Part shown: positions 12,479-39,699 of the stretch, one piece after another | Position numbering within the stretch: position 1 is the stretch's first letter | How the letters are laid out: every line of letters begins with the position of its first letter | From: Lingula anatina | Lineage: Eukaryota; Animalia; Brachiopoda | DNA length: 64,000 nt | Assembly: GCA_051362555.1 (NCBI GenBank) | Contig: CM120648.1 | Coordinates: forward strand, 4,770,587 to 4,834,586 | Reading direction: 5' to 3' | Notes under the pieces: model-generated | Seen by the model: only the letters and a program-made list of their open reading frames with translations | What the model was told of the DNA's origin: nothing | Database searches by the model: none | Translations under genes and position numbers: made by a program

Positions 12479-12515
<37 letters not shown>
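12479..12515. repeat. (GT)n microsatellite
   Basis: Visible directly. Confidence 0.95.
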
Positions 12516-12518
<3 letters not shown>

Positions 12519-13210: not shown

Positions 13211-14489
13211 TTAGTATTTGTAGGTCTTATACGGGTGATATGTATAATAACCTGTCGTATAGTACCGGTAATATGGTCTTCGCCACAGTTGCCATTTGTT
13301 AATCAAATAACCTATGTTTCTTCGCCGATGATCGAGAGTCTCACCATCGCTCAAATCTGGCTCTTCGTCTGGGATGTCATCTTCGTCGATTCGGTCGTCT
13401 TCAAATGTATTCGACTCTGCTCGCGTTAGACGGTTGAAGTACCTCGGATGTTGGTGAAGTTGGTTTAGTAGCGAGCCAATACCTCGTTTCTGAGCAGGGA
13501 ATCCATCATAATATGGCACAATAACTCTTGAGGGAAAATAAAAATCTTGGTACTGGTAGTAGTCCTCCAAGTCGCGTTTCCGTCTCGTTTTCGCAGCTTT
13601 CATTTGCTGGGCTTTATCGCTTGTTTCATTTTGATCGTCTATTGTTCTCTTGCCAGAGCTGTACCCTTTCCACCTGTTTATAAGCCGACCGATGTTCTTT
13701 TTATCAACGCCCGCCGTGTTCTGGTAGGCAACTGCAGGTACATATTCTGGGTATCCTCGCCAGTGGTTAATCACATGGCCGATGCTTTTCTTGTCTCCGT
13801 AAACGTCATCCTCACGTTTGTGACCGCCTCTCCACCGGTTGATTAACCTGCCGATGTTCTTCTTTTCTACAGACCCGTCAACCGCGTCGGTGTAGACTGC
13901 GTCATTTTCGTCGCGCTTGCCCCCTCCCCTCCACCTGTTAATCAGGCGACCTATATTTTTCTTATCTACTGACGCGCCAATGACATCAGCGTCGTCTGCT
14001 TCATCTTCGTCGCGTTTTCCGCTTCCCCTCCATCGATTTATCAACCGGCCAATATTCTTCTTTTCCACATCATCGCCATTTTCATGCGCACTGTCAGCTT
14101 CATCCTCGCGCTTGTGACCACGCCATCTATTGATAAGTCTACCGATGTTTTTCTTGTTCATGGAATCAGCCAGTTCTCCAGCATCGTCATAGTCGCGTTT
14201 ACCTCCGCCCCTCCATCTGTTTATCAGCCTTCCTATGTTCTTCTTGTCCATTTCTTCGTACAGGGACTGGTCGTTTTCCCCATCAAGTGAAATAGGAACG
14301 TTCGCATCAGCATAGTCTTCCTTTTTGGAGTTTGTTCCGCGCCATTTTTGTAGAAGCGCTCCAATATGGCGCTTGTCGTCCACGAGATCGTCTGCATGGT
14401 CGCTTTTCTTTCCTCTCCACTTGTTAAGAAGGGCGCCTATTGCGTGCTTTTTATGTGCCGGTGGTAGTTCGTGGTGCGTCTGATACCAT
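13211..14489 (-). CDS. Exon 3 (terminal) of multi-copy peptide precursor, ending ...YHPYKTYKY*
   Basis: Acceptor cttttacatgtatatcag|A completes the AG|A Arg codon and gives NIGALINR-W, restoring the motif across the junction. 1279 nt open to TAA at 13213-13211, with 11 further KK/KR/RRR-flanked motif copies. Total CDS 81+416+1279 = 1776 nt = 591 aa. Confidence 0.95.
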
Positions 14490-14825
14490 CTGATATACAT
14501 GTAAAAGAAGAGATAATATTTTAATCAAAGTAGTATTTGAGAAAGTTATAAACTATAAGGAAAATCCACATTATAGAGAGAACAAAAAATAAATGATATT
14601 CAGTTTCTCTTTACTGCCATGTATCAGCCTTCTGGGAACGCTAGTGACAGAAAAATCAGCTTCTAATGCTATACCGACAATTTTTTTATATTGCTAATGA
14701 GCACAAATGAGATGATAACGTGATCATTTACATGTAATTGTAGTCTTAGTGGCTTCTCACAAATATTGTAACACATTTAAATAATCTAGATATTTTCATG
14801 AATGGACGTTGGCCATTACAATTAC
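14490..14825 (-). other. Intron 2 (336 bp, phase 2) of the precursor gene
   Basis: GTAAT...tatcAG, AT-rich; splicing keeps the frame and the peptide motif. Confidence 0.92.
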
Positions 14826-15241
14826 CTGTTGATCAGAGCTCCAATATTTCTTTTTTGTTCGATAGCGTCTTCTCCGCTATCGTGGGCGTGTTCGCTTCTC
14901 TTTCCACCCCCTCTCCATTTATTCATCAGTGCTCCTATTCCGCGTTTTTCACCAACCTCCTCCTCTTCCGTGTTTCTGTCAGCGTCATCTCTTTTGTACC
15001 CCTTCCACCTGTTCAACAATCTACCAACGTTTCGTTTGTCGTCTTCTTGTTCGGATTCCCTGTGATCCTCTCTATGGAGTTCCATATCCCTGTGATCATT
15101 GCCTTCATCTTCTCGTTTCTTCCCGCGCCATTTGTTCAATAAGCGCCCAATGTTGCGTTTTTCTACGTCAGCTTTATTGATTTCGGTTGCGTCCTTTTCG
15201 TCAGGTGCTTGGACATTTTCTTCTTTGCTTGGTTCAGATAT
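14826..15241 (-). CDS. Exon 2 of multi-copy peptide precursor (ISEPSKEE...KRNIGALINR)
   Basis: Acceptor tctttacag|ATA, donor AACAG|gtaat (phase 2). Encodes KR-flanked NIGRLLNKWRG, NVGRLLNRWKGY, GIGALMNKWRGGG and the start of NIGALINR, with D/E-rich spacers. Confidence 0.93.
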
Positions 15242-18200
15242 CTGTAAAGATATGAATGACTGTTTTGAATACATGTTAATATGTTTCTTGGGAATGTAGT
15301 AAAATATAAATTTATGTTGTATTTGGATGTTAGAGACGTTGGTATCGTGTAACAGGGTCGTAGTCCGAGAAATATGCTTGGGGTATATAGCAGGACTTTA
15401 TAAAGTTGAAAAGAAAAAAACTTAACCAACTCCACCCTTCCCCGGCCGCAGCCTACGGGCTTAGGATGTGAGGGATAATCGATGTTTAAGGGAATAGCAT
15501 AAAAAGTCTTATATGATTAATATGAATTTTGGTATTGCAGCTTTAATATGGAATGCTCTCCAGATTCACACAACACAAGTGGTGATAAATCGGAAGCTTC
15601 ATTATTTCCCATTCTGTTTGGCAGTGAAGCGCCAACCAAAGAGTCAAATGATCAAAAGCTGAAAACGCAAACTCGTACATGAAACAGAGAGAACGGAATA
15701 TAAACGAACTTGCCTCACTTGCCGTCGCGTTCAGAAAAGATTTAAGACAACATCTTAATACGCATCTCTTCAAAATCATTTTCTTAGCCCTTTTTGCCAG
15801 CTTCACCATTATGAGCCTTCTTGATCTAGTTTTCCAAATCTTACACCTAATTTACGTCAAGTGTTTTTGACATCAATTTGGCGCTCTGCTAAGGGGCATT
15901 GTTTTGACTTATCAAAGTCACTCATTTTACTTTAATTTAAACTTCTTAGAGATGTTGTCTCGATATATACGTGACCTGATAAGGATTTGGATTATTCCCC
16001 CTCGTCACGTCGTTACTTAGTCGATTATTCTCTCCCATAACAGAAAGCAATTACCCCCTCCATGACAGTGACAGACTGGCAGCCATGTCCCTCAGTCGTT
16101 TTCAGTTAATTTAACGAAACTGAGAGTCTTTGTTAATGTAAAACGCCAATCAATTTTGAACGATTGATCTATTAACTATGACAAAGTTAGACGTCTGATG
16201 TACCTATGTCACAGTAAGACGTCTGATATTTCAGTAGGAATGGCCTCTTTATGTTCAGATTATCCATGGGAAACCAGAGCTAAAGGGTAAACAATGAATT
16301 GGTTAAAATTGATCAAAAATATTAGGCGCGACGAAAAATCTTTTATTCGTTTATTCATTTGCATTCCATTCCTTTTCAAAGTACTTACTCTCTTGAAAAC
16401 ATTTTAATCTGACATTGCCTTTTTGGCTTTCAGGTGAGATTAACCTTATTTGTACAGAAAGAAATGACGCTTCGCCTTATTTGTCCTCATCTGACCATGG
16501 TAATTAGCCACTTAATGGTTTCTAGATAATCTACTGGTACAAAATATCTTCAGGTTGCACAGTATTTTTCCTGTCGCGGCGCTTAAAATGCTGTGTTTCA
16601 GCCAGTGGTGATTGATAACGCCTAGTAGTAAGCTTAAGCGCTTTTATATTTAATTTCCCTGAAATGAATCGGTTATTAGGCCTATTTCTATCAGAAATCG
16701 CATTAGGTGCAGCTGACCATCAATAAATGTCGATGAAAGGTAATCAATTTTATACACTAGGTGGCACTACCGGATGGCTATAAGGGCAGTTACCGTTCAA
16801 GAGGAGACCAAACATAATGTTAACAGTATCTATTAACAGCCAAGTGGTTACGAAAAAACAAAAGGAATTATCAAATACAGATAGTTGAAATAAAGCAAAT
16901 TGGGTAGTGCATTGTAGTGACACTTTCCAACAGTAATGTATAACCGATACTACCCAAATACGAGTTTTATATTTCATTACGCTCATGTAAAGTTATAGCA
17001 CAGTGCTAAAAACTAAGCGGTGTTGAACAATATCAGAAGCAAAATTTCTTCAATCAAAATACCAAACAACTTCCATATTAGACCTAGCAAACAGAAAATC
17101 GTTCGATTGCTACATACTTATATTTTTTTTTTTGTTTCTATGGCATTTCTAAATTTTTGGACGTTAATCCCTTTTTTCTCAAAGTAACCTTCCATAATAA
17201 ACGATGATACTAGACGGTTTTAATTTCTGTTGAAGCCCACAGAATATCTAAATAACGGAGAGTATATCCGTAATTTATTGTTAAAAGGCGTCACTACTTG
17301 TCACCAAGACAATACCCGATGTATACACTTGCTATTCATGTTACCCGAATATTTAAACACTGGGAACAATACACGTCTTTTATTGTTACATGGAGTATCA
17401 ATTACCCGGAGATTTGTATCGTTGAAATAATACCAAGAATAATGCTTCCGCCACGGGAAAGCAATTTGTTGGCCGTGATATAAAATACAGATCTGGGCCC
17501 GTTCACATTTGGCGTGTTAAGATCGGTTCTGCGGCGCAGAGTTTCTTTTTGCCTTGACAAAATGCTATACGTTAATGGCGTTGAAAGTTTGTTTTTTCGA
17601 CAGCATGATTGCAATAAGCACTTCACCCAAAACGTATTTTTCACCTTAGATTGATTTCCAGTGGAACTGCTTTGCCATAAAGTGAATTCGACCCTAAAGT
17701 GCACAATGGCACAAGATCGATCTACGAAAACAGAGAAGCGCTTTCACGTCCACTTCACAGAAAACAGCAGAACTGAATGCGAAAACGATCGAAATACAAT
17801 AGCCTTGATTTCTATTATTAAGGCACACTACAGGTGTAATGTTTTCACCCGTGTCGCCTATCTTTTCTGATTACGCGGAAATTATGCAGCAATTTCTGAG
17901 TTACTTTGATGTCAAATTATTTGATGCTGCGTGGTCTATTCATACTTGCATGGATTTCCAATTTTGTTTCACAATATCTAGCCTGTGCGGCAATATCGTT
18001 TCTGCAAAAAAAAGTTTTATTTGATCGAATATGTTGTAGTTCCATTAATCTACACAAAAAAACTTCAGGACTTGCATATACATATATATATAGACGTAAT
18101 GGCTCTAATTCGTGCTGCCCCCCTCCCCTTGCATCAAGCCACATAAACATGGGGTGAGATTGACAGCATATCAGTGGTTACAGTGGTTTTATGAGATACT

Positions 18201-19347
18201 AGTGCCCAAGCAGCATTCTATTGTGTTTTTAAGGTTGTCAATATAGAAAAGGGTGGAAATACAGAAATAAGTTATTGATCCGTGTAAACGATGCTTGTAG
18301 TGTTGTACATAAAGTAGTAAGAAAAATGAGAAAAATCATTTCGACAGGAATAAAAGTTTTTCATGGGCACTGCAATAAAAGTAGCAAAAACGAGTAAAAT
18401 GATTGACACGTTGTAAGGAATAAACACCAGCGCAAAGCGGAAACAATATACCATTGGGGTTATGACTTTGGAAGATAATTAAACTATTGACATTCTCAAA
18501 CCACGCTGCGCTTGGTGCTAATTAGATAATACCCATTATATCTCTCTGTTGGATAGTACTTTCCTAGTACTGCCATGAAGGAACGTTTTCAAATCACTCT
18601 GAGCTTTAAAATGATAAAGTATGTTGACTCAAATACTGTGCGTCCGCCAATCTACTAGTATGTAAGACCTATAGGTTTTATAATATGATCAGTGTAATCA
18701 TTTATTTCTCAAACCACGCTGGATTTAAAACTAATTAGCTAATAATAGAGTTGTCGAAGGTTGGTAAGACGAAAGGCATGTAGTGTTAGCGATTGACTCT
18801 ACATGGAAATGGACAAAGCCCAAGAGATAATCGTTTCACGTTTAGTTCTAGTAGTTTCTTAATATAGTTTTACGGGGTCGGATATGATTGAACACGAGAT
18901 AAGAACGGGGCCAAATGTAAGACATGAAATGTAAAAGTTCGATGGAAGGTCCTGCCAGAATGCTGCCAAGGTTTGCAGAGCTGAGCGTCTAACAAGGGAA
19001 TCGATCTTTGTAAAAGACGAAATTTGCACGGGGCGATGGGTTTCACGAGAACGTAATTCAAGAGGTGAATATCGAACATCGTTTATGTTTGAGCTTCCAG
19101 GAAATGATCACTTTAGGATTGACTAAATATTATTTGTTTTCTCATTCTATACGCTGTACCCCGAGTTCCGTTCCAACTGAAAGTATTCTAATCTTGTTTC
19201 TCTACGGTGGATGGTGGGGCACGAAACGAAGAGTACTAGTAGGCCTAGCTGTACCCAGTAGTTGGTTTTAAAGTTTAGGACAACTGGAACCCAGCGCAAT
19301 GTTTATCTGGCATCTACAGTGCAGTGTCTGGAGAAGGCTTATTAAAC

Positions 19348-19504
19348 TACTTACGCGAAATGAAAATAAGAACCGTGTCTGGTTTTTGTCAACTAATGTT
19401 TTCATACCTTATTACATTACTGGAATGGGCTTAAAGTACTTACACGAAATGAAAATAAGAACCATGTCTAGTTTTTGTCAACTTATGTTGTCACACCTTA
19501 TTAC
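19348..19504. repeat. Diverged tandem duplication, period 89 bp
   Basis: tacttac[g/a]cgaaatgaaaataagaacc[g/a]tgtct[g/a]gtttttgtcaact at 19348 and 19437. Confidence 0.8.
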
Positions 19505-22500
19505 TGTCGGGGAGTGGATCAAGCGTCTAGTATATTTGACTTGATTTATATTTGAGCATAATTATCCATCAGCAAATGTACAATGTATGTTTAAGTGTGC
19601 TGCAAGAACTGCTGCCAGAGCTGCTTTTGCTCTCAATTGCTGTGTCAATTTTATTCTTTGAGCAGTGATGGCCTCAAAATGATTACATGTGCATGTATAA
19701 CGATGTTAACATATATATCCACATGCCTAGTATAGTAAATTCTATACTCCTTCCACATTATTTTTGCATACAATATGCCCTGTAAACGTAAAAGGAACTC
19801 AGTATGGCCTAGACAATCAGCCGTACACATGTACATCCTGATTATGCTGTGCCCTTCGTGAATTCACCATCACGCTCTCTTGACAATCTAGGCTTGTCTC
19901 TTTCTCGGATTGTAATTTTCCAGGATGAAATGCCAAAAAGGCACCTAACTCGATCGTCTGGATGAGAAAACGTCGCCCTACATGTTGAACCTATTCAAAT
20001 GAGGAAGGAATTACATGTAACATAGACGTATTTATCGTGTTATATTTTGATGACGGGTATACATCATGATGTACCTGTAATAAAAGCTGTTACTAGTGTT
20101 AGGGTGCTTAATTGAAAATAAAGAGGAGCTGTTCTCAGAAGGTTACATGAACTTCAGTTGCTTCCACTGGCATTTATGTAGATATTGTTGTATCTTAATT
20201 CTTTATATACGCCAGTAAATTGTATATACATTGTAACTGCGAAATCCCGGGTTACATTATAACATATTACATGCAATTTACTTACATTGCGTTTAGAGTT
20301 ATTTGACAGAGCAACCTGAATGGAAAATGTGTTTACTTTGAGGAGTTTAATGACCTACATACATGTGTTTCTGTGCTTTACTGTGACAGCTGAGAATCAC
20401 TGTGTTTCTATCTTTTATGAATGTTGTATACAATTGGCCGTGTCACCATGAAAATGGCCGCAACCCAAGATGTTCGGTGATTGGTCTTGTATCTATATCT
20501 GCAGGACTAAATCACAATTTCATTTCTGGGATATTTATCTTGATCAATTACTGTTTTAAACGGACAATGAATTGAAAGAGTTGAATTGCACAACGCTTGT
20601 CCACCTTGCGGCTTAAAGTGATTCTCGCGCTGTTCCGCTACATTGATCGTTTATCCAATTAAACAATATGAGAATGTGCGTACTTTTAGCAGTTTCTGGT
20701 AAAGATGAATATCAAATTCTAAAATGCCATTTTCAGAACTATTACTCGTAAATGTCAAACCTAAATGCAACCCTTACCCTCATGAAAGGCAGCATTGGGT
20801 ATGTCAAAATGCTAACCGTCAAAGACTAAAGACCTCTTTTGAATTTTATACTTGTATGACAATTAACCTACGTTCACCGCGTAAAATTGAACTCCATTTT
20901 TATTTTTTAGAATTCTTATTTACTTCCTGAATGTCAGGTTTTTCCTAGAATTGTCATTAACTTTTTTTTGAATAATTGATGTGTACACCCTTTTTCATCA
21001 TACATGAACTTAAAGAGTATTTGATATTAGATATTGCAACAACAATGCCTTCTCCGATCTTTGAAACTGTTGTAAAACACGGAAAAGAACTAACTATAAA
21101 TACAGTTTCCTTTAGACAAATTTTAAATAAAATATTTCCGATTAAGAAACAAGTTATTTGGCGATTAAAGACATACATTAGTGACTGAAACATCTGAAGA
21201 CTTATTTAGTATTTCAGGCATGTTCATGTAGCATGCAAAGGAGTTGGTCCTGTATTAATTGAAGGATAAATTTATTCTCTTACTTAACCCAACTTGCGAA
21301 ATGGCATAGAACCTTGGTTAAAGAAACAAAAGAGACAGAAAAAAACTATTTCACCGTTTTTTCCTTATTATATGTTTAATAATTGTGGATTCCTGTTTTC
21401 ACTGATGCTATTCTGCAGATTTGCAAGTTACATCGAACGTTTTTCGCCTATCGAAAGTTCGTAACTACCCCATGGTTGGAACCAAATGTATGTTTAATAG
21501 ATCAAAACGATGTCACTCGCAGCGTTATTTGTTCGTAGGAGTAGTTAATCACAGCGGTTTCATTTCTTTGAACTTAATCAGCAAAGTAAATTCTACCGTG
21601 CAACATGCTCTTTAGTCATGTTTCCGCGAAAATCATTACGCTTTCTAAAAGAGAACAATAACTGCAGTCCAGATTAAATACTTTTATCTCGACCTCTGGT
21701 CATATGGCCCGCAGAGAACATTTTAATAAAAAGCGAATCATCTGTTGCCAGGAAAACAGCAATTGGTTTCATCACGATTTATCAGTGATTTTTGAGAACT
21801 GAGTCAGGTTAGTTTTTATCACGAGGAGTGTCCGTGTTTGAAAACAGCAAGTAGAGTTAGAGTTGCTTGCTTTCTCCACATGAGAAACTAAAATACGCCG
21901 CGGATGAATGTTATCGCAAAATATGGCCATCGAGTTTTGCCCCTCTATTCATTTTTTGCACTTGTGGATGTACGTGCTATATATGCTATGGCATAAAATA
22001 CGAGACCACATGCTATCTCTTTATATACAATCGAGCAAATGATTTAAAAAGGTAGCCATCTGCTCCCATTGGTGAAGTAATCGTTATCAAAGATTCAAAC
22101 GGCCTAGTGAGATGTGCTAGCGCAGCCATACTTCACTGAAAACGCCCTGTGCGTGACAGATGTTTATAAGTAGAACCTGTTACTTAATCCGTTCGTCTTT
22201 TTTCCGTGCTCTCAGACGTTGCGTCTTATTACTTCAAGATAAATAAGGAAATAGCAACGGCACGCTGATTGGTTTTGGGTGACATTTTAAAAGTTGATTA
22301 AGCTTTGATTACACGAAAACAGTGTTTGCCAAACACAATTTATCTGCTTCGTTCGTGATTCACATAAGGAAATACACAGGTGCACACGCTGATTGGATTC
22401 ATTTGAATGGCAGGAATCAGTAGTGGTACGAATTACTGATCTTTATTCACGTAATGAAAGCATTGTCTAGACGCAAAATCGTAGTCGGTCGCTTTTGATC

Positions 22501-24739
22501 AGTTTGGCTTGCGTGGTTGCGTGAGAAGCAATAAGAAACACTAGAGCGTGGAATTACTGGTAATTCTGCACAACAACTTGTCCAATAATGACACGTTTTT
22601 TCAAATGTCAGCTTATTCAATACCTTGGATATCAACAGGAGACGTAGTTCTTATTGACTGTAAATCCACTTAACATTAGTCTGGGCGTCGTATGTGCCTA
22701 AGAACTTTTTTCTCCTCATTATTTGTATAGAAATGACGCAGAATGCTGGCCCCCAAACCGGAGGTGGTCTTGTGATTATAAAGAGAACCACTGGCGTCAT
22801 CTTCTTTAGTTTTTCTTATGCAATTAAAAGAATTTATTTAAAAATATCTCCATTCCATTTTCCATTAAAACAGAATATACTTTTTGACATTTTCTAAAAT
22901 ATACCGTGTTGTTGAATATGTTGGGATGTGTGTTAATCCATAGCCATAGTTCGGTTGAGGCTGACGAGATATTTGCTTCAAATGAAATTTCGGCCAGCAA
23001 TGTTTATTTCAGATATAATAAATTAAGAAATAAGATGGGTTCATGTCTCATTTCCTTCTCACTAAGATACTTTGATTTTAATTCTGCTCAATTTTTTGCC
23101 ATTTTGACGTTTTTAATATGACCTTCCAGTGAAACAATGAATCTACCATGTATGCGCTGTTACTGCATGCATATACCAGTTGCAAATGCCACGAACCACT
23201 CACCAAAGTTCATGGCATTTTATTACTATTACTACGAAATGAGATATGTGAAAAAGCAGACTAAGTGTCACTAATATCAAAATTGTCCACATTTTGCAAA
23301 TCGATTGTTACTAAAAACTCAAGATTGATGCTGTTTATTGCTTAAAACGATGAATAATCGATACAATAGGGGCATTTTTCTACCAGTTTTGACGGGTAAA
23401 ATCAGAGTTCACGAGAGGTCGTTTTGGCTATAAATTCCGTATAAAATAGTCGGTTTTGAAGTGTATGTAGAAACACTGAGTGCGCCTTAATCTCGTCCAG
23501 AATGGAAAATTAATTGCATTCATTTTATTTGTATATATAGTAAAATATAAGAACGCAAATAATGATATTTTGGTAAATGATCCTTTAGCCGCCATCTTTG
23601 GGAATCACCTTTTGCGTTTCATCAAAATATCCACTTATGTAGGCATGGGATTTCGTGTAAGTTAACTACAAGTTTATGGATAAAGGGGTAGAATGCCATA
23701 AGATACGTACTATCTTGGTACATTTGCACAATAAACGAAGTGTTGTCGCACCTTTCGGTAAAACCCGGTTTGGGCGAAGTACATGTACGATTCAAAATAA
23801 ATTGGGGTTGTCTGTGTATCAATATAGATTAAAAACTTAAACAAAACTAACTCGACAGTCCCACTTTGTCAAATTTAAATTTAATTAAATTGTCAAAACT
23901 GTTAATAATAAGGTTTTTATTTTCACGAACACTAAATGTTCTTAAAAGCGGCATACATGTACATGTACAACAGGGTTGAAGAAAATAGTTTGTTCCCAAC
24001 TGATATGGTTGTATTGAGGAATTCATTTAACGTGTGACTGGCCTTCACTCACACATGCACGGTCTTCACAGGTTAACACGAATCAATGCTGCTGTCAGTT
24101 TTCATCAGGTTTGAAATATTACAAAGGAGAGCATAACATTGTTATGATCGACAATAAGTTCTAGTGTCTCTAATTTGTACGGAACCATAGTCGTTTTCGA
24201 CAATGTTGAATGGCCAATCGTTTTCTTTTTGACAGATAGGCAAACCTTGGGCAATAAATGATGTTGACGCACTTTGCGCTAACAATTACGCTCCCGTGCC
24301 ATTAACCTCGCCTGAACTTGTCTTCGTCGCGAATCATGGTGAATAAATTATATTTCTGATTTGACAATGATTAATTAAAATGAATAGCTCGAACACGTCC
24401 CACACCGCACCTTGCTTACTTGATTTATCTAGACTGCTGTGTTTTATGCTAGTATGAGGTAGAACACACATTTTGGTATCAGAGTCACGCTCAAGGTAAA
24501 CTGTTTTGTGAACCAGACAGCGTTGTGAGTTCTGCAAAGTGTTAATCATTGTTGTTCGTTGGACGAGGTAATCATACGTGAATATTTCACTTGATAGAGT
24601 GAGAGCACTCAGATTACATCTCTTGTAAAGGTCATCTTCCTCATGAGAATGACCAGTAAACCAAATTGTGCGTGTGCAGGGTTTTTTTTACGCTCGCGGT
24701 TTTTATTTTGATAACCTATTGATCTGTCTCATATAGCCT

Positions 24740-24741
<2 letters not shown>

Positions 24742-24787
<46 letters not shown>
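24742..24787. repeat. (TC)n microsatellite
   Basis: Visible directly. Confidence 0.95.
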
Positions 24788-24793
<6 letters not shown>

Positions 24794-26134
24794 AAACCAC
24801 TGTAGTGAAACATATGAAGGGTTCAATCCCTGTCCTTAGCTTAGTTCAAACCAAGTGAAATTTTAATATCATTTGGAAAGAAAGCAATTTAGTTATAATT
24901 CTGAAAAGTTAAGTCTAAGATGCATGCTGTTACTTTACAAACTTTTGAAACTTCAGTCGAGCTAGGTTATGTGCAATGAAAATGATGCCAAAATGAAATC
25001 AAGGTGCTTAATCGTGCAAACTGGTCTTTGAATGCTGAATTTGTAATAATGCATCACACAATGGCTAAACGGTACCCCAAGGATGGACCAGAAGTGTGTG
25101 CTTTTCTCAGAAAATGGCAACTTTTAGATGGCGTGCAGGGAGAGAGAGGCGCATTAATTCTCAATAAAGGAAACAATTGACACTGACTTCTTTAATTGCC
25201 GTCTGGAGATTGCAGTTATGCATGATATCATCTGTTTGCGTGGCATCCTACAGACAAATCAAGAAACCTTACAGATTGTAGACAGTCAAAAGCAAATTGA
25301 AAAATTCCCTGAGACGTCGCTAATTGAAATCCGCACTTCCTGTAACGCGCGACTTAATAACTCCATCGCACGCAAACATCGAGTTTGCGCGCGCGTTTTA
25401 ATTACCGCCTTTTCTCCGTATCCGTTGTGTGGGCATCCGCGTTGTTCGGCAACCACTGCAGGAGATATTCTTCTGCGAGGTTTAAGACACATTGCAAGAT
25501 TGCTTTGGGGAAGACAGTGCCATAAAACACGTTTATTTGAAATATTTCTATATCCCTGCAGAGGAAACAAAATTATTAAATGAAAACAGGATATTCAAGT
25601 GTATACTATAACGTACGTTTGTTGCCTCCAAACCATTTTCTCAGTCACTGGGGATATTATAAAGACAATTAACTGACACTTGTGATTTCCTGAACTTACG
25701 GGTTTTGCTGCAGACGAGGCAAAATGACGGTTTAGCAATAGAAACTCATTTGTGACCAATCTTTTAATCATGGCTATTTCCCTTTGTAATTACCTGTTCC
25801 AGGTCATTGTCTATCTCTCACTCTTCCAAACACCTGTTATATTTGGTCCAATAAACTGACAACGTCGCCCCCACAGCCACCCACTAAAACTAAAACACTA
25901 CAACTAAAAGTTAGATATCCATTTGGACAAACATCCCAAAGCAGGTCAATTGACATACTGGTACCTCGGGGTCCTTTTGTCTGAGGATCTTTTGTAATAG
26001 AGCTAAGACGTTCCTAATCTTGATTTCTGATGATGTATCTTTTCCATGGTACGAATGTTATTAAAAAAACTAAACCAGAATAGGTGGAACGGCCCACCAT
26101 AAAGAAAATTTGGATTGACTTTATCACACAAGTT

Positions 26135-26137
<3 letters not shown>

Positions 26138-26196
<59 letters not shown>
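26138..26196. repeat. (AT)n microsatellite
   Basis: Visible directly. Confidence 0.95.
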
Positions 26197-26199
<3 letters not shown>

Positions 26200-26560
26200 C
26201 TTTAGTACTTAGCGCTTTACATGATGTAATGCAGACCCGCAGCCTTTTTGGCTGGGAAAAGGTCGGCTCTGGGTTATCTTTGATCTAGTTTCATGGTAGA
26301 AGATCCACTTTTTCAGAAAAAGATCACCCCCTGTGAAATTGCTGGCTACGGGCCATACCGTACTATGTGACACTGAATGCAGGGGGGGGGGTACGTGTTC
26401 TGATACTAACCTACCGATTGGGTCGGAACTAATCACGCAGTTTGCACTCCCAAGGGGCTATGGAACCTTTTTATGGAAACTTTTTAGGTCAAACTATCCT
26501 CCGTTTAATTAACAAAGCTTCGATTAACTTTGTCGCACAAATTTAAAAATAATGCACTTA

Positions 26561-26817
26561 GGCTTCGTTCACATGCAATGTCTATTTTCTAAATTCTATT
26601 TTCTATTCGCGCTATCTTATGATCACGGTCTGTGCACTGAATGTCCCGCCGCGTAATTACTGGCAGCGCGAGCCAGTTACTTATAGTAACTTATAGTAAC
26701 TGGCTCGCGCTGCCAGTAATTACGCCGCGGGATATTCAGTGCACAGACCGTGATCATAAGACATGCCGCAAATAGAAAATAGAATTTAGAAAATAGACAT
26801 TGCATGTGAACGAAGCC
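26561..26817. mobile_element. Palindromic Tourist/Harbinger-like MITE, copy 1 (in intron 1)
   Basis: Almost fully self-complementary (GGCTTCGTTCACATGCAATG...CATTGCATGTGAACGAAGCC), TTA target-site duplication on both sides, near-identical second copy at 60640. Confidence 0.92.
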
Positions 26818-29800
26818 TTAGTAATTGCCCTTTACCAGGGTTGGGAAAGGTTAGTTTTCACTAGATATTCACATCTTTTACTTTGTAAATTGCCCATCAA
26901 GATTATTTTCCAAAAAAAGAAAAATAAAATAAGGGTAAAATTCCTGTCACCCAGCTGGCTTTTGGTAGAGAGAACTCGGTGATTGGCGCCTTTCAACCCG
27001 TAACAAGTTATTTGTGGCACGTGCTGCATGTGAGCGAACTGATATTGAACGTCTCCGATCAGCTTCAAACCGTTGACGCACGCCCAAACAACAATGGACC
27101 TTCATCTCTGTTTTATTGTGTGCGTTTTTGACTATGACGCGGCTTATCTGATAATCAGTTCAACTAATTCCTTAGCGCTCTGTGGGAAATCTCACATCAA
27201 TCGTTTTCTTGTATCAGATAAAGCGTGAGAGACACTGTTACTTGGTGTTTCTTTCATTTAATTGCCAGGAAAAAAGCAACCTATACGTATAATTTCCTCT
27301 GTGGTTTGGACCAAATGTTATCTAATAAATGACTTGGTATTTCCTTGTGTCTGGTTTGTGCCTACAAGACGTGCAGAGCTATCTCACCACGCAGGACTCT
27401 TTGAATTACTACGACAAACGAATTGTCTTTTCCAGTTAAGATAAAAGGCACAAGACTCCTACCCTCTACCAAGACCACGCTGCATGTGTACAGATATATT
27501 TATCATTCCATGAGCCTATCACTTGCTGTGCACATATCTTTTCTGTCCGGCTGGGGCTTTAGAGCAATGACTATATGTACATGTATAGCATCGCTGAACA
27601 GAATTCTGGAAGAAAGTTCAAATGTCCATGCCTGTGACCCTTTTGCTTGATTTTTTACATGGATCATGTTTATTGAAATATATGGAATGCAACTGCCTGT
27701 ATCCCGTTAGCTTTGTAACTATTTGGGAACTGGTTCTTGTAGCTTCTTTTCAATGCAATTTCAGTCATATACCTATATGACCTGGGGACATTATGCCTTT
27801 GTGGCCCTTCTGGCCCATTTTGGCGCACTAGTTTTCTTGTCGCACTGTCGTGTAAGTACTATTTGATATCTTGAGCAGCCCCGAGAAGAACTACCAATGG
27901 TAGCTAATGCAATTTTTAACAAATGAGATCGAATATGTTTCTGATGTTGCAGTTTATGTGAATTGGGTCGCCTTGTTTCAGTTCCTTTTGTTCTCTATTT
28001 TCATAATCATTATCATTTTATTACATGTTAAGAGGAGTTTGTAAATGGGAAAAAGTTAATATCATAAAAGAAAGATTGAGGTCCCACTGTTCACTTAGGA
28101 CCCGGATGTGCTTACATCTATCAATTGTTTGTGTCCTTACTTCAAAATGTTTGCAATTAATTAAGATTGACCAGTAAGAAATTTCGGCGAAGGGAAACAT
28201 TATCTAACATTATCCAAGCAATATATAAATTTTGCATCAGAGAAAGAGTGCTACACGGCAATTTTGATTAACCTGTCAACGTAATGAAAAGCACTGAAGT
28301 TGCTTGTTTAAGATTAACATTGTTTCGGTAGATGACGGTTTCTTCGTAGTTGAATGTACCCTCAGTACCTAACATCTTCTTGTAATCCGACTCTGGAATT
28401 ATTTGCAAAAAAAAAAAAAAAAAAAAAAAAAAACACGTAGAATCTCTGTGAGGGTTTGTAGTCATAGATAATCCGATACTGGTAAATGCCAGAACTATAG
28501 CATGACAGATATTACCAATTAGAATACATTGTACTTACGATCGCGTGTAATCAATTCTTTAGAACAGATGTGTGCAATCAATGCTAAGACCAAGGGAAAA
28601 AACGGCTGTAATTGGATTATCATGTTTTAGTCTGTAGAATATAGACAGGAGCATATAATTATAAATATACAAATAGCTGAAATAGGTAACATGGCTGACT
28701 GCATTCATGCCCTAATAAGAAGGGTTTAATAATGTAATTGGCAGACAGCAAAAAAAAAAAAAAAAAAAAACATGTGGCATTACCAGTTGCTCACTAAAAC
28801 TTTTTTTGTATTTTCGTCTGCCTTATTTCATCGAAAGTGTACCCTGTATTACAAAGAACTTACATGTGGTGAACACGTGCTGCCACATTCCTACAGTACA
28901 TGTAGCAAAGTAAACATTAATGTTGTATTTTGAAAGTCAGGGGGTCTTGGATTCATTCCTGAATTCGATTTCTTGTTTCATTTTTTATGCCTCAATCACT
29001 GAGCGTCTTTGTTACAATTGGTTTTCATTTCTCATTTAAGCAAAGCAAATCATATCCTTTTATTTGATATTAAAGCTATCAGTTACGGTCAATATTGCTT
29101 ACAAAAGATTCCATACCGAGTTGAGATCTCATATCATATATTCTTTATCTCCACTGAATACTCACATTAACAATATCTATTAACGCCTCCCTCATGACTT
29201 TTTCACACCGAATTACGAGTTTGTTGGAACAAAAGATGTTTAGAAGATTCTTGCATAGTCTATTTCCAGTTCCATCAATTTGGATTTTCCTTTTCAGGCG
29301 GTCGTGGCATGCAAAGTCGCTCAGGATATGGTATATTTGCCATGTTCCTTAAATCAACTCATTAATAAGGCGGCTTTGAGATGACAGTTTATTATCGCAA
29401 AAAGATTAGTGATGAGGAAATTTGTTTTTAAAAAGGAGACGGAAGTCGGTTGGACACGAACCAAAGCTCGGGTAATTGTGTTTAGTTAACGTTGACATTT
29501 TTCGTCCGTAACTTTATGACGTTTTGTCATTTATGAAATGTTATTTAACTACCGTTGGATCCCTGCGGTATGCAGTAAATTTCTGAATCCCCCGCTGTCC
29601 GCAAGCTTGTGTATAACTTTATTGATTGTTACATATGTTAGATCATTTACAACAACAAAAGGAATAATACATTGAACTGTATTTGATAAACACAATCCAT
29701 TATAAATTATATAGCTCCATAATATTGATAAAAACAAGTTATTATCTAAATTAATGTTACAATGGACTATATTACTAACTTTCCAAATAATTTTGCATCG

Positions 29801-30425
29801 TACTCAAATATCCGAAGAGTTTGGGCTCTGTAAATATTGCCACAAATAAACAACCCCGCGGACAAGGAAATGTGGTGTTACAAAATGAGACCTAGAACCA
29901 AGAATTTCATTTCTTTTTCTCATTTTCCGTTTGCGCACGGCCTATCAATCTTGTACAACAAGAACATAATATGGCATAAGTCAAATGTTATATACACATT
30001 ACACAACAGAAAAGCAAAAGCACTTAACCTAATTTTTAAATCACATAAGGCAAGCATTGCCAATTTCGTTTCCAATAAAAGTGGCCATTACGTTTGTAAA
30101 GCAGGTGATAATTCGTTCACTGCCCAATAACTGGCTTACACTGCCTTTCACGTATGTTCAATGATTTCCCTATATTCCTATATTCCCCTTGTTATTGCCA
30201 TTAATGTAATATGCCACTTCTCTTATGTTCATAAAATGGAAGAGTAATAAGGATGTTAGTCTATAGAATTTAATGCCAAAATGGAAACGGATGTTCTTTA
30301 GACAATGCGTAAAAAGGCAATTTACATGTAGCATGTCTTTCAAGTGGTTTCATTACCAGGGGAAATTTCGGTGTTAAGTTTTCATTTGAGGACGAAAACA
30401 GGCTTAGACCCATTCCCACAGACAG

Positions 30426-30657
30426 CATCAATCTACGTAAATCTATATATCCACCTTTGCAGGGATTTTGGCTGATTGCAATCGGCTCAACTGAATGGCA
30501 CGCTTCCTTTTGTTTATAATCAATAGCTTTTCTCTTTGTATAATCACCAGTTTTTCTGTATTCTACTCAACGCCCAGGAGGAGGCGTGCCATTCAGTCAA
30601 GCAGACTGCACTCAGCGAGAGTCCCCGCAGAGCTGAATCGATCTAAGTAGACCGATG
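30426..30657. mobile_element. Decayed fold-back element (old MITE) with ~80-bp imperfect inverted arms
   Basis: Left ...ggctgattgcaatcggctcaactgaatggcacgcttcc pairs with right ggaggcgtgccattcagtcaagcagactgcactcagc...; no clear TSD. Confidence 0.55.
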
Positions 30658-30825
30658 GTTTTTATATGAATGGGCCCTTACAAGTGGCCAGGCATAGTCT
30701 TAAAACAGCTGCAACGTACGCACGTCTCAAGAAAAGTGAATGAAAATATTTTAATTTTATTTGAATATTATACAAAAGTACATGTACATGTAGGGAGCAC
30801 GGAGAAGACGAGCCCACCAGCGAAG

Positions 30826-30860
<35 letters not shown>

Positions 30861-33800
30861 ACCGTTACAATATCCTGGTTCACCAGTGCAAGTAATAGCC
30901 TTTTATCGTGCAATATTCGATGCCAAAGGATCACATCCCTTGGGACACGACTTCCAGCATGACCGTGAACATTCCAGCCGCCGTGTGAACCTAAAATAGT
31001 TTAACTTGCCACTACTTGCCACCTTTTTTCATGGAGCACAAACGTTAATAAAAGCTCGATTCCCTGAAGTAATAAAGGCACATTATTGACCTGTGTTTTC
31101 GAAATAATCATACAAATGAACCCAACAATGCAGCAGTTAATCATTTGTCAGTGTTCAATGGGATTTAACTGCTTAACGTGAAAGATGACAGAGTGGTTTA
31201 AGTGAAAGTTCAAAACAAGGAAACTTAAAACTTCTTCTGAAATGGACTTAATTTGAACTGGTGACAGTCTCACTGACGTCTGCAGAAGACCAGATTGCAT
31301 GGTATTAGATAAGCCTATGGAAATGAAAGCCTACTGTATATTTGAGATATTTGGTATTTAGTAATTTCGTTTTTGACATTTTGCGGGGCTGAAGGGGCCA
31401 AGATTGTAAGCTTTTGTTTAAACCGGGTTAGATTTGGTTTATTAGTGAGTCCACGAGTTAACCACATGATATAAAGGGATACAGTATACTCAATATTGAC
31501 CATCATTCATAATAAAAAAAGTTGGTAAAATAAAATATATTCACAAGTTGAATGGAAAGCCATGACGACATTAACAGGGAAGAATTAAATTTTTCACTTC
31601 AACTACATCTCGCTGCGTTGATTGCAATAACCTGTTGTTGATACACATCCATCATTCATGTTCAGCGTTCTGTAGATTTTTATCTCATCGATACATAAGA
31701 TAAATTGGTGTGGCAACATTTTTATTGTTGTGACTTCTATTATAGATATCAATAGTAACGAAGTATGCTTAGAAGATAAATAACCTACACATTCCGAGTT
31801 AGATGTTTTATCGTAATTTCGAATAGTATAAACGTTCGAATAGTATAAATATGCATTTTGGTCTTTTTAGTAAGTATAAATTTGCATTAATAGCATTCAC
31901 AGACAACAGTAGTGTACATCTAATGGCCGACATCTGCCAAAAATTCTCCCAGGGGTAAATATCAAGTCATCAAAAAAAACCATTCTAGAATACATGTATG
32001 AAAATCATTGAAACGCACGTTTTGTGTGCCCATTTCGTTAACACCCATTAATTTGTGCCTGCTTAAAATCATAAAATTAATCAACATTAGTGTTCTGTAT
32101 GTTGAATCCAAGGCCATTAGGTAATAGAAGCATGCTGCAAATAGCATGCCCATGGCTGGTTCTGAATATATGCCAATATTCGACATTAAGGAAAGTCTCT
32201 AGGCATCTTTGCCATCCATCATACGCTATTGCCTCCGGGGAGAGTAAGGCTAGGGACACAGTAATCGCGAGACTCGTTGCTGCTACTACCCCCCAAAAAA
32301 CCCTTAATGTAGATATATGCTACAAAATGTAATTATACCAGAAAACTCGAAAAAGACATTTCAATGACGGTGGCGGCGGTTAGAATCTGAACACCCTACC
32401 CTCACGTCATTTCGTGATTTCCAAGGGCATTATCACCAATGCTGAAAATCGGTTTTTATTTTTTGCTCATGACGACCAGGAAACATTGCATGAAGCCATA
32501 AAAGATTCCATCTGAAGGTTTCAGTCCAATTTGGTCTGGTTTGAACCAGCCACTTCAGCTAAAAATGTGGTAATCGGTTATATCTAAGCTTTCGCCAATT
32601 TTGAACCGATTACAAACTCAAATGTACTTGTAGCAAAGGCCACTTTTCAGAACTGAGTGGTGACCTAATTGGCATATGCCGAATTTCAAGGAACAATGAG
32701 CTTCTCATAGTGGCCAACGGAACTGTTATCACTGTCTTTAAGTTAGTCTTTCAAAATCCATTTACGGCGGTTCCCAAGAGTAAAGCCCTTTCCTTGCACC
32801 AGAGGTGCGGTGCCAGAGGCGCTTCTCTAAAATCTAATTAGCCATCTTAAAAGAGTTTCTAATGACATTATAGTAGAAAGTCAATGGTAAAACAACAGTT
32901 CTCTGCAATACAAATGTGATGCACGTGTTTTTTTTTTTTTTTTTTTTGGGGGGGGGGTACATTTTTAAGGAAATAAAGTCAAAGTCTTATAAACGCTGTT
33001 AATTGTTATTTTGAATTCTCCCTATGATATTTGAATATGGATAAACGGGATTCCTTGAAAATATGGCCATCACTTGTCAAAATGGAAAACAGTGTACAAA
33101 TTAAATGTTACTGATACTTGTATAGCCTGAGTCATTATTGACAAGCGTACGCGTAGACATTGAAGCAGTGGATAATGTACGAAAACACTGTATTCGTGTT
33201 CTAAAACAACAGAAAATTATTTTAATACCAAGAGGTTCTATATTAGTGGGAAGGAAAACAGACAATTATCAATGAATACGAAATCAGTCGAATACCTATC
33301 TCAAACAAATGCCACCATGCCGCCGATCCCGTTTTTTCAATTCCCAAGCTTTGATAAATGCCAAATTGACAATTATGTTCAAAGATAAGTCTGAGCACGT
33401 TCTGATGTAACGGCACCGTGGCGTGATTCCAAAGACAGACTGCGAATTACAAGTAATGATTATATACTTAAACAGTCAACAAGTGCGTGCCTTTCTATCT
33501 AGAAGGTACTTACATTAATGCATTGATCCCTTTATGGGTTTACAATTAACGATGGCAATTGTCTTGTTTTGAACGCGTGATATTAACCAAAGGGAAGACA
33601 TAAATTTTTAGTGGAGTAGTTGTGTTTACACGAGAACTATCCGTTTTGTACTCAGAAAAATGACCTAAAAAGCGTTTTAAACTCATACTCACAAATTGTT
33701 TGATACATTATGTGTGGTTACCGCAGTCAAACATAGTCCTTTTGTTTTTATATTTCTGGTTTGTTGTTTTCTTCTTTCTCTCTTTTCATTTCTTACTTCT

Positions 33801-34842
33801 CTTAAGATATGAACTGTTATGAATGCCGAGTATCAGTGAGAGGCGTGATGGACCCGAAATACGTAATAAAACATATATATATCGGTTAATATTCTCAAAA
33901 TCTAATTTCCTTTCCTTTAGTTGTGTGGTGTTTATGAAATAACCAGACCACGTTTCTCATTTCGAACATTTGTATGTTATCAAATCATCACAGCAACGTG
34001 TCTTATTTTTCTGTAAATCATTTTGATATCGCCAGCCTCCGCATCTTTTTTCATCAGAGTTTTTTCATCAACAATTAATAAGATTTGCCAGGGTACCACG
34101 CTCCTGACACTCCCACACGGCCTTTACCGTGAGCTGTTCAAGACACTTCATTAGCGGAGCTTTGTAACTTCATTAATTCACGGCTCACATTTTCTCGTTC
34201 AAGTGATTACCTAAAATCATTTCTTTTCATTTCCCCTCAAAGGGCACGCAGCTCCCAATAAAGACAACTGAGTTGATCTGTCCAACTCAATCACGTTGTT
34301 GTGAGCGACAGGAAGACAGGACAAAGTTGAATGAAAGTTGGACCTTTGTGTTTTTTTTTTTGTTTGTTTTTGTTTTTGTTTTTGTTTTTTGTTTTTTTTT
34401 TTTTTGAAAATTAATACGGCTTGAAGACGGCCAAATGACGGCTAGGACATCGTATTCTTAAGAAGCTGTCTGTTAATTTCTTGATGCAATTGTTATCCAC
34501 TTGTGATATTTCTGTCAATATTCGGTGTTTGTCTTCAATTACCAGAGTTGAATGCAGTGACATGGCGGATCCAGCAGAGGGGAGGGGGGCGAGGATGAAA
34601 TAATTTTGCCGCCAAAAACGATGTAAATACTCACAAGTAGTTTGCAACCGACGTGCTTGTCACAGGCGAGCCCTGTCTCCACTGAAAAATAGCGTATTTT
34701 TCACCAAGCAATATTTATCACATAACATAGCAAAAGCGTGTATCTTACGCTTATTATTACACTTGTTTTGAAGGGGAATAAATACATGTATGAAACAGCA
34801 CAGTAAACGCTCACATATTAACTGTATGCAGTGTATGTAGGA

Positions 34843-34949
34843 CACAGAAAACACATAACGTTATTATAACGTTACCATAACGTTAATTTTACCAAAAAAC
34901 GTTATCACCACGTTATGGTAACGTTATAAAACGTTCTGTGTTTGCTGGG
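34843..34949. mobile_element. Short AACGTT-repeat fold-back remnant ending TGTTTGCTGGG (MITE-like)
   Basis: Repeated AACGTT palindromes arranged symmetrically (ataacgttaccataacg / cgttatggtaacgttat). The right end reads CCCAGCAAACAC on the minus strand; the left end is degenerate. Confidence 0.5.
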
Positions 34950-37900
34950 CTGTTATTTTTGAGGGAGAACGTAGGATAGGAGAGCACGTACCCGCTATGC
35001 CTGCTGTGACTGTCCTTGGATCTGTAAATGCAGACCCCACTTGCTCTATACTTGCTCTGTACATGTCCCAGAGGTCATCTGGGTGATGACGTCATTCTTA
35101 TTCAAAATTACTCGCTCACATTACAGAAAGATGCAGAGAAATATCTGTGAATATCTAGTGAAAATAATATCGCTGTGGCCCCTGGTAGAGGATAGCCTTA
35201 TGCAGGGTTTTACAACATGATGAGGGCACGAAAACAATTTTGCTTTCTTCAATCTGACATTTAATTTTGACTGTTGATTTTCTGATCGATAATAATTGAA
35301 ATATGCACGAGATATCGCGCAGAAATATAATCACAGCGCAGATTCCTATGAGCTTTCTGTCAATCTCTTTTAAGTGGCGTTTCCAGTCCACGGCTGACCG
35401 CTTAATATTAGAACGTTTTAGCGCAACTTAAAGTATGTGTGATAACGTTGTTCGTAGGAAGTCAGTTTTATGACATCGGATTGTGGGTATTAGATGTACT
35501 CATATGGTAAGAAATCGTGGTCTGTCTGCCGGCGTTAGGAAACTGAGAGTCTGTGAAACAGAAAGTCCGCCCTCCATTTAGTAACAATGGTTAGGGTTAG
35601 CTTAACATAAATCAAAATCTAGGGCAAGGCTTACCTGTACAAAGGAATGGGAAGCGGACTCTCTTTTTGGGGCATTCTCTGTAACGTTACATGGGAATAG
35701 TAGGTGCTAGATTCTGTTGTCAAAAATTATTCGCATTAAGTAATGGACTCTAAGAATTGAATCAGCCCAGGAGAGTTTACATTTTTAAGTCTCTCTTACA
35801 ACGTAGACTGCACTGGAATCTGGGTCCTTTCATTCTGTACGCCATTAGTCGTATAAACTGACCAGCGGTCGGCGTATACTGGTGACCAATTCCCAACATA
35901 TACTTATGGTGGATTGCTGCTTGGCTTGCTATCATCTGATCATCGCATTCGTCGGAGAACGTTAGCAACTGAACGCGTGAAAAGTGCACTCCTCTTACCT
36001 GACGAGGTTATGAATTTATTGGCGTGACCGAAGGCAACCAACACAAGGGAACAAAACACTATGAATTATTAAAGTACATTGCCACTTTTCAGCAAAGAAT
36101 CCGCCAGGATGAGACATGTTTATATTTGTGATTTTTGACACGGTTCGATTATTTGCGTGCGATAAATACAATAAATAACGCAGTGACACGCTATCGGTCA
36201 ATATTGACATCGTTCCCTAGACTTTGGTATGGCGACCCTTGACCAAACAAGATTGCTCTGCCCGCCAGGTAACTGGACTGTAGGCTGAGGCAGTGCTTGG
36301 GGAGGAGGGGGGCACTTGGCTGCAAGCCTACAATGCATGTAAGCAGGTTATTTGTACCGCCTGTGGCACCCAGCAAGACGCTGAAGGAAAAATGAGCGTC
36401 TTCTTATGGACTAGGGGAAAGCAAAACTTTAAAAAGATAACAAAAATATTTTCAATAAGAATAGTATCTGGGGAGGAAGCGAACAGCCTTGTCTGCCAAA
36501 CCCGGAAATAGCTTTCACGATTTTCGTCAAAGTTTTAATACTTTGAAAGAAATATGTGAAAGTTATTTGAAAAACCTGAATCGCGCTTTACAACTTAATA
36601 CCTTTTAGAATTTGCCGTTAAGTGCATGTTTACACCACTGCTCTAATTTTTTACGTCAAGGTCTGGCAGGTTATATTGTGGGTCATGTTTTATTCAGTAG
36701 ACCATAAATGTTACCTTACTAGGTTATGAACTGCTTGCTTTGTGATCCAATAATCGCTGAAAACATTCAATCACTCCCAGGCATCACGCTTCTCGTTCAT
36801 ATCTTCTGGTGCTTTCACAACGATCTAAACAAATTGATGAGACCCTTTCATCAAGGAAACATCAATATGGGGATAAAGAGCTCCTTGTCAACAGAAAGAT
36901 GTGCAATTTATGCCACTTGTGGTGGATATAAATCCTTTTCAGTGCTGCCTCGGGCGCGCTTTGATGATAAATGTGAGTTCAAACGGCGCAAAGAGGGTGT
37001 CTGCATTGATGAGACGCAATTTCAGTTTTCGAAACCGGTTTCTTTGCAATAGAAGGCATAAAGAGCTGATATTTTGACAACACAAAGATGAGTTAACAGG
37101 TTTCAGTGCTACTTTTAGCAACTTTCAGAATGATGAAATGATTTATCGAATCCCCATTAATGCCCTTTATCTGACAGTTACGTCAGAGTAATTGTTCGGT
37201 CTCAAGAATAATTCGCGATTAAGCTGTGCAGAAGATGGCGTAACGTCTTGACTCTGATATCCAATTTCCTTTTGAATTTTTCTAAGAACCAACCAAAATG
37301 TTGTCCAGTAATGTTCAAGTACAGAACGAGTTTGCACCCTGGATAATTATGACTTTAACCGACACCGGTCAAACAAAACAAACCTAATACAAATCACAAC
37401 ATTTAAGATAACGCTAACGTTCCTGACAGTGTTATCAACACATACATATATAGTTTTAGCATTGGTTCATGTGGAATCAGACTGACAAAAATTAGTATCA
37501 AGCTAAGCATTTCTCTGTCAGTAAGTCGTACATGAATCAATGTAGTATCAGACGACATAAACTCTAAACCTCGTTGTTCTTGGTTTCCCCAGTCTAAGTA
37601 CTTATCTGTAGGATGGAAGTGGCATATATCGACCGAAAGATAACGACAGATTAAGGGAATAGCGATAGACGGATTTCTTCGCCAATCAAAACGACCTTGG
37701 AGCAACGTTAGATTATTTTGGATTAAATGAAATCCACTTTGTTCCTGGCACGTAATAGATTCTGGATATTCATTTGTACTGCTCACTGCATGCTTGTGTG
37801 TTACTGTGATGTTTTCCAAGTAAATCGGCTGAATTTTTGTCACAATAATAAGTTGACTTTTGATGCTGGTGTGCAAATTATTGTTTTATGATCAGCTTCT

Positions 37901-39618: not shown

Positions 39619-39699
39619 CTTTTCATTGGCAGTGCTCTCTTGACAGGCGACAGTGACCGCCATTAGAAGCAGGACCATTCCCGCTTGATGTAGTTTCAT
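39619..39699 (-). CDS. Exon 1 of secreted multi-copy peptide precursor: signal peptide MKLHQAGMVLLLMAVTVACQESTA-NEK
   Basis: ATG at 39699-39697 has A at -3 (acaagATG) and an in-frame TAG 13 codons upstream. Basic n-region, hydrophobic core VLLLMAVTVA, small residues S-T-A before the likely cleavage site. Ends at canonical donor AAG|GTGAGA in phase 0, matching the phase-0 acceptor at 15241. The link across 24 kb is inferred. Confidence 0.8.

Follow-up and report, generated by a model that had tools for sequence, protein, structure and literature searches.

Six NIGRLINRW copies lie in a spliced, expressed gene of Lingula anatina that likely encodes a neuropeptide precursor, probably related to NPLP1/HIGSL and HIGA

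Six copies of the peptide NIGRLINRW in a 64,000-nucleotide stretch of Lingula anatina DNA (the whole stretch analysed, here called the window) are encoded by the final exon of a minus-strand gene that has three exons and a protein product of 591 residues. The gene is spliced and expressed, and it likely encodes a neuropeptide precursor that is cut into peptides probably homologous to those of the NPLP1/HIGSL and HIGA families. It holds 15 related cores in total, the six identical ones and nine that are not identical. The earlier note on the six copies overlooked these nine, as well as two introns and a signal-peptide exon 24 kb upstream. The six copies are likely old repeats, conserved but not frozen.

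A six-frame scan showed that the cores continue, in a single frame, to either side of an A+T-rich gap. Three exons with GT..AG intron ends yield one open frame of 591 residues, with the following layout in window positions.

39619..39699, minus strand: coding exon 1, with the start codon, a predicted signal peptide, 27 codons and a phase-0 GT donor
15242..39618, minus strand: intron 1, 24.4 kb, GT..AG
14826..15241, minus strand: coding exon 2, with whole cores at 15154, 15031 and 14941 and with RNA depth in runs X18-X20
14848, minus strand: core 4, mostly in exon 2 and finished across intron 2
14490..14825, minus strand: intron 2, 336 nt, GT..AG, phase 2, splitting an Arg codon of core 4
13211..14489, minus strand: coding exon 3 to the stop codon, with 11 whole cores, acidic spacers and RNA depth

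The joint across intron 2 (14489-14826) was present in 8, 7 and 8 RNA reads of runs X18, X19 and X20. Exon 1 was sought upstream as a start codon with a hydrophobic stretch and a phase-0 donor; this gave 26 hydrophobic starts, three of them with a donor, and two of those three were the same exon, 39699-39619. Loose ends of RNA reads behind 15243 (5 reads of X18 and 7 of X20) match 39621-39650 at 29 of 30 letters, and exon 1 is thus joined to exon 2 over 24.4 kb. There was no RNA depth in intron 1 at 15264-15300, and none over the scanned span 15505-30000 except for one repeat and traces of at most 0.17. An additional exon within 39618-15242 was considered and rejected, as the two candidates were weak, neither was acidic, and reads link exons 1 and 2 directly. 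At about 26550-26830, intron 1 contains a short interspersed repeat with reads on both strands in four RNA runs, numerous loose ends and opposite-strand joints; it is not a tandem array and is likely a small mobile element.

RNA reads fell on the gene in four of five runs (X15, X18, X19 and X20), and there were none in run X12 at 95% likeness. The level in X18-X20 was about 3-4 reads per kb per million, a low bulk level that fits a neuronal transcript. In the 1.2 kb that follow the stop codon (window 12001-13210), the coding strand has neither AATAAA nor ATTAAA. A few RNA reads lie beyond the stop, at 12600-13180. By eye, no second gene was evident at 1-12500 or 40000-64000 of the window, where open frames resemble noise or microsatellite runs, and the window yielded neither a marker gene nor an Rfam match.

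The protein is very probably a secreted neuropeptide precursor, a reading that we base on the spliced RNA, the hydrophobic N-terminus, the dibasic sites, the acidic spacers and the Gly-ended products. The signal peptide is predicted from hydrophobicity: the most hydrophobic 11-residue windows of the protein fall at residues 6-20, its predicted signal peptide core. Fourteen of the 15 cores are preceded by KK, KR or RR and one by KH, and KK is the site ahead of all six identical copies. Asp and Glu make up 30% of the spacers. Seven of the 15 predicted products have the C-terminal Gly required for amidation, and 10 of the 15 carry a net charge of +2 to +3. Over the 15 cores, Gly3 occurs 15 times, Ile2 14 times (Ile or Val 15 times), and Leu5, Asn7 and Trp9 14 times each, while positions 1, 4, 6 and 8 are variable; position 4 is Arg in eight cores and Ala or Ser in five, and position 1 is His in a single core (HIGAL), the other 14 beginning with N, G, A or S. 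The six identical copies, each of which starts at its higher coordinate (14239, 14149, 14056, 13957, 13858 and 13696), are predicted to give five distinct mature C-terminal forms, with four of the six amidated.

14213..14239, minus strand: NIGRLINRW copy 1, predicted product ending RGG-amide
14123..14149, minus strand: NIGRLINRW copy 2, predicted product ending RGH, unamidated
14030..14056, minus strand: NIGRLINRW copy 3, predicted product ending RGS-amide
13931..13957, minus strand: NIGRLINRW copy 4, predicted product ending RGG-amide
13832..13858, minus strand: NIGRLINRW copy 5, predicted product ending RGGH, unamidated
13670..13696, minus strand: NIGRLINRW copy 6, predicted product ending KGYSS-amide

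Two degenerate cores fall within the C-terminal part of the protein (13211-13590), together with an RRKR site, a segment rich in Tyr and Phe, and a Tyr-rich tail. The precursor is of low complexity. Pfam gave no match above the curated cut-off for P0001-P0004, and a PDB search gave three matches, the best with an E of 0.47. The first Atlas hits were tachykinin-type and other multi-copy precursors with scores under 0.9, which we took as a lead to shared architecture only. PDF-type peptides, which share LIN, were dropped on the multi-copy layout.

How old are the six identical copies? The codon strings given for them in the earlier note agree with the minus-strand sequence over the first eight codons of each copy. 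Pooled over the 15 pairs of copies, there were 103 silent differences and no replacements. Identical codon pairs numbered 32 of 120, compared with 39.2 ± 5.5 expected from independent draws on the gene's own codon usage (P(null ≤ observed) = 0.096) and 36.2 ± 4.8 from uniform draws (20,000 runs each). As identical codons are not above independent draws, the silent sites are saturated, and therefore no trace of common ancestry is left at them. The spacers were said to differ in length and sequence, and they do: consecutive copies are spaced by 90, 93, 99, 99 and 72+90 nt, and ungapped spacer identity is 16-19%, a figure that without gaps understates identity. Shuffling the bases of the window did not reproduce such repetition: in each of 20 shuffled versions, six-frame translation gave no complex 9-mer peptide more than twice; with a top count of 1 or 2 there, a sixfold 9-mer is not chance.

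It is next to inconceivable that the six copies are identical through recent duplication or gene conversion. The gene is able to gain near-identical units, as the 81-nt in-frame duplication in a relative described below shows, but saturation of the silent sites refutes a recent origin for these six; moreover, the longest exact DNA match linking any two units of exons 2-3 is a single 12-mer, and 44-nt units are 61-77% identical to a reference copy. The earlier view of the six copies as old repeats is thus borne out, with saturated silent sites rather than a low dS between them. Such a codon pattern is ordinary for old repeats under purifying selection, and purifying selection has been reported for neuropeptide genes (PMC5996578).

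The further claim that the peptide is invariant fared less well. Among paralogues, conservation is higher in the cores than in the spacers: all 15 cores have an identity of 67% (pN 0.23, pS 0.96), against 16-19% and a pN of about 0.5 for the ungapped spacers of the six copies. The six copies, however, were chosen after the fact out of 15 variable cores, and their predicted C-termini differ, with five forms among six copies. A diverged relative was available as an orthologue check in RNA runs X18-X20, whose divergence from the window over 13640-15300 is roughly 5%, at sites that are mostly fixed among the reads. These runs come under the same species label as the best-matching DNA, suggesting that the label covers divergent lineages. 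Four copies were scoreable in the relative (1, 2, 4 and 6; copy 3 had low depth and copy 5 a depth of at most 2), and three of these four showed Ile-to-Met changes. In copy 1, Ile6 is Met in X18-X20 (difference at 14222 in 4/4, 8/8 and 7/7 reads); in copy 2, Ile2 is Met in X18-X20 (14144; 2/2, 8/8 and 7/8 reads); and in copy 4, Ile2 is Met in X19 (13952; 3/3 reads). Copy 6 had no difference among those listed for X19, at a depth of about 7.

That the cores are invariant in the DNA, with the Met readings due to RNA editing or misplaced reads, is highly improbable. On the transcript, A-to-G accounts for two of the three Ile-to-Met changes, as editing would give, but the third (14144) is C-to-G, and changes of the kind that editing makes are not in excess (plus-strand T>C at 7-8 places versus A>G at 9-10), which together make editing unlikely. 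The changes are also present in nearly all reads and stand among dozens of differences of all kinds, and none of the reads fits two places.

Cores were not measurably more constrained than spacers in the relative. At least 57 differences in 54 codons were classed, and among the differences listed the cores had 6 silent and 7 replacement codons, the flanks 3 and 0, and the spacers 17 and 21 (Fisher's test for cores versus spacers, p = 1.0; with flanks, p = 0.55; both on small counts and on the differences listed). In the best-covered part, cores with flanks had a pN/pS of 0.022/0.082 and spacers one of 0.036/0.123. The seven core replacements, among the differences listed, were confined to positions 2, 4 and 6, and six of them were conservative. 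Three indels, likewise among the differences listed, lie in spacers. Third-letter changes at the 22 Ile codons gave Met in three of four cases; as neutral exchange gives this with a P of about 0.11, parallel selection for Met is not claimed. Under neutral Ile/Met exchange, the probability of 12/12 Ile is 0.03, uncorrected for choosing six of the 15 cores. From these results we conclude that selection preserves the chemistry of the motif, probably with a mild preference for Ile, and that the exact identity of the six copies is partly ascertainment, the peptide being the commonest state of a flexible motif.

Copy number differs as well. The relative's RNA contains the following unit, 27 codons long, twice.

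14896..14976, minus strand: 81-nt unit with core 3 (GIGALMNKW) and its cleavage sites, tandem and in frame, twice in the relative's RNA

Four X18 reads reveal the duplication through a back-joint of 69 nt plus 12 letters, and five X19 reads have matching loose ends. This is a recent-looking copy-number difference, and copy number is thus still changing. Run X11 (organism B) had no contigs aligned at 82% likeness, which is no proof of absence.

Database searches found two relatives of the precursor. A word search with exon 3 gave one relative among 7,997 scored, P0003, an unnamed 710-residue protein (Logan), and exon 3 against 1.84 billion representatives gave P0003 alone (matches with E values of 9e-25 and 3e-25). 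Like the Lingula precursor, P0003 starts with a hydrophobic stretch, carries about 17 xI/VGxxINR cores between acidic spacers, and has a late polybasic site followed by DL. The two proteins are 36% identical over aligned columns; in P0003, Tyr is commoner than Trp at core position 9, and of 19 matched sites 13 have Ala at core position 5. Its cores include GIGSLINRY, HVGAAINRW and HIGAVLNKW, and six start with His. Used as a query, P0003 retrieved only itself among 7,993 scored, and its Atlas feature hits, among the matches listed, were all neuropeptide precursors with scores under 0.9. Metagenome contigs gave 593 pattern matches and no confirmed ones.

The second relative was found with a unit profile, A3, built from 14 of the 15 units (the intron-split unit was left out). 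Among 7,993 scored longer proteins it had one match (E 1.6e-8), P0004, which is XP_076065870.1 of the mantis shrimp Oratosquilla oratoria, annotated as uncharacterized. P0004 carries many HIGSL peptides as well as terminal SLAR peptides, and its likeness to a Scylla precursor suggests that it is an NPLP1-type precursor. A3 scored 51.9 bits against P0004, while the best of 300 core-shuffled versions scored 10.7; the reciprocal profile scored 29.8 bits on exon 3 (at most 13.3 when shuffled), 19.1 on exon 2 (15.1 shuffled) and 21.2 on P0003 (16.1 shuffled). As the match collapses on core shuffling, it depends on core order. These controls exclude spacer composition; the short motif itself may nevertheless be convergent. 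A BLASTP comparison of P0003 with P0004 was weak (E 0.028).

How might such a precursor work? From general prohormone biology, a neuron or endocrine cell would make the precursor, whose signal peptide would take it into the secretory path, where convertases would cut it at KK/KR dibasic sites and the basic ends would be trimmed. The predicted Gly-ended products, about half of the total (7/15), would be amidated. Release would then yield a mixture of peptides, mostly of 10-14 residues, that have the N-terminal core in common and differ in their tails, for which the receptor would most likely be a cell-surface GPCR or a receptor guanylyl cyclase. Selection would hold core positions 3, 5, 7 and 9 (Gly, Leu, Asn and Trp) together with a basic residue at 8, the held positions being the likely receptor-contacting face, and positions 2, 4 and 6 would accept conservative swaps. 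Unequal crossing-over may have produced the repeat units, at a time remote enough for their silent sites to have become saturated since, and many copies would raise the peptide dose per precursor.

Two other readings of the protein have to be weighed. It could, like P0003, belong to a neuropeptide family that is separate and lineage-restricted, with an xIGxL start that is convergent with NPLP1 and HIGA. Core positions 6-9 (L/I-N-R-W) are indeed not common to P0004, the LAR-type peptide is absent, the pairwise P0003-P0004 score is weak, and none of the main texts searched contains the exact motifs. Nevertheless, we consider this unlikely, given that the two-way profile match is lost when the core order is shuffled, that P0003 cores grade into HIGA-like HVGAA and HIGAV starts, and that the RWKGGKR ends of nemertean HIGA units resemble RWRGGGKR ends here. 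Far less plausible is a defence polyprotein (antimicrobial or venom-type), in which acidic spacers would neutralise cationic, helical, membrane-attacking peptides. Such a polyprotein would suit the net charge of +2 to +3 on most predicted products, the Trp and Arg content, the tolerance of aliphatic swaps, the copy gain in the relative, and a GIGAL start reminiscent of amphibian skin peptides. However, the hydrophobic moment of the core (0.77) is reached by 12% of its shuffles, the sole named database relative is an NPLP1-type precursor, replacements are not in excess (pN/pS about 0.2-0.3 throughout), and the RNA level was low in the runs examined. The earlier note had also favoured a receptor ligand over a defence peptide on the ground of invariance; the ligand is probably right, on precursor anatomy and relatives, and the argument from invariance does not hold.

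A receptor-ligand precursor related to NPLP1 and HIGA would have several consequences. If the precursor and P0003 bridge HIGA and NPLP1, the six near-identical copies and the natural Ile/Met variants would make a tight ligand series for receptor finding. A 2012 study is said to have proposed Gyc76C as the NPLP1 receptor. NPLP1-VQQ did not activate this proposed receptor in one recent study (PMC13267572), and no NPLP1 partner emerged when 78 GPCR and 12 guanylyl cyclase alleles were screened genetically (PMC12800252). A wider family would narrow the receptor candidates through shared presence across phyla, and if HIGA and NPLP1 are one family, NPLP1 would move from arthropods to at least the protostome ancestor. 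The data also carry a caution, in that identical cores with saturated codons overstate constraint if the copies are singled out in hindsight; three of the four scoreable copies had changed in a close relative.

The gene appears to be undescribed. Six exact motifs were in no main text searched, and no motif was found in the supplements of PMC5627052 and PMC6188537; they were also not found in the searched parts of echinoderm, xenacoelomorph and mollusc papers (PMC5996578, PMC6425005, PMC8398477, PMC6586643 and PMC4772807), whose supplements may hold a relative. Multi-copy 'cocktail' precursors, as described in an ophiuroid survey (10.1101/129783), resemble the present one in copy number and in similar copies kept long, and copy gain in multi-copy precursors is suggested there to stem from unequal crossing-over. 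In the same survey, TRH copies were often identical even in DNA, whereas silent sites are saturated here.

HIGA was compared by eye with published peptides; no HIGA sequence was among the protein search results with exon 3, P0003 or the unit profile. HIGA was first given as Platynereis-only, with peptides of Platynereis dumerilii, the HIGAAMN peptides, confirmed by mass spectrometry (PMC3890597), and was later found in nemerteans, where the units include KKNLGSAMRWKGGKR as well as NIGAA and NLGSA starts (PMC8557429). On these sources, HIGA is like the present precursor in being a long signal-peptide precursor of many peptides with xIG or xLG starts after KR or KK (PMC3890597, PMC8557429), and in its acidic spacers and varied tails, some of them amidated. 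Nemertean HIGA units end in RWKGGKR, with several W-K/R-G(G)-KR ends, similar to the RWRGGGKR ends here (PMC8557429). It differs in that here His is at position 1 in one core of 15, Arg is at position 4 in eight of 15, and N-R/K-W is fixed at positions 7-9. The HLGSLAR..NWLP-type first peptide of nemertean HIGA is absent from the 591-residue translation.

For NPLP1, the Scylla precursor is filed as neuropeptide-like precursor 1 (PMC4888303, PMC4655400), HIGSLYRamides are treated as NPLP products (PMC4888303), Drosophila NPLP1-VQQ begins with NLGAL (PMC13267572), and NPLP1 is reported as arthropod-wide (PMC12800252). In the sequence file of PMC8557429, KKNIG occurs at 0 places and KRNIG at nine, and the hymenopteran precursors with KRNIG, the labelled ones being from ants, hold KRNIGAL and KRNIGSL. 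One nemertean HIGA, listed three times, accounts for three of the nine KRNIG places; three more are the hymenopteran precursors, which have the look of NPLP1, and the others are two prohormone-4 and one receptor. Like NPLP1 and the HIGSLYRamides, the Lingula precursor is multi-copy, its dibasic sites, commonly KK, lead into x[IVL]G[SA]L, its C-termini are variable, and it shares the two-way profile match with P0004. The NPLP1-type start, x[IVL][GA][SA]L after a dibasic site, is present (Ile or Val at position 2 in 15, Gly at 3 in 15 and Leu at 5 in 14 of the 15 cores). The LAR(N/D/Q)...(L)P continuation of P0004 terminal peptides and of ants is missing, with Ala6 or Arg7 in 0 of the 15 cores, and Asn7 and Trp9 do not belong to the NPLP1 features of P0004.

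In the sequences compared, HIGA and NPLP1 both combine a conserved N-terminus with varied tails, and the Lingula precursor looks intermediate between the two. Homology with them is fairly probable; counting against it, the motif in common spans about five residues behind a dibasic site and may be convergent. The precursor probably functions like HIGA and NPLP1 and is probably homologous; as the LAR-type peptide of both is missing, we do not file it as either proper. By eye, the first peptide of several nemertean HIGA precursors (HLGSLARHNWLP, PMC8557429) closely resembles a terminal peptide of P0004 (SIASLARNNWLP), a likeness that may give independent support for joining HIGA with NPLP1. Among the matches listed, no paper joining the two was found (subscription journals lay mostly outside the search), although one listed locust paper matches the word starts of both names. 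We put at about even the chance that the Lingula precursor and P0003 bridge HIGA and NPLP1/HIGSLYRamide as one ancient, N-terminally conserved family of orphan neuropeptides.
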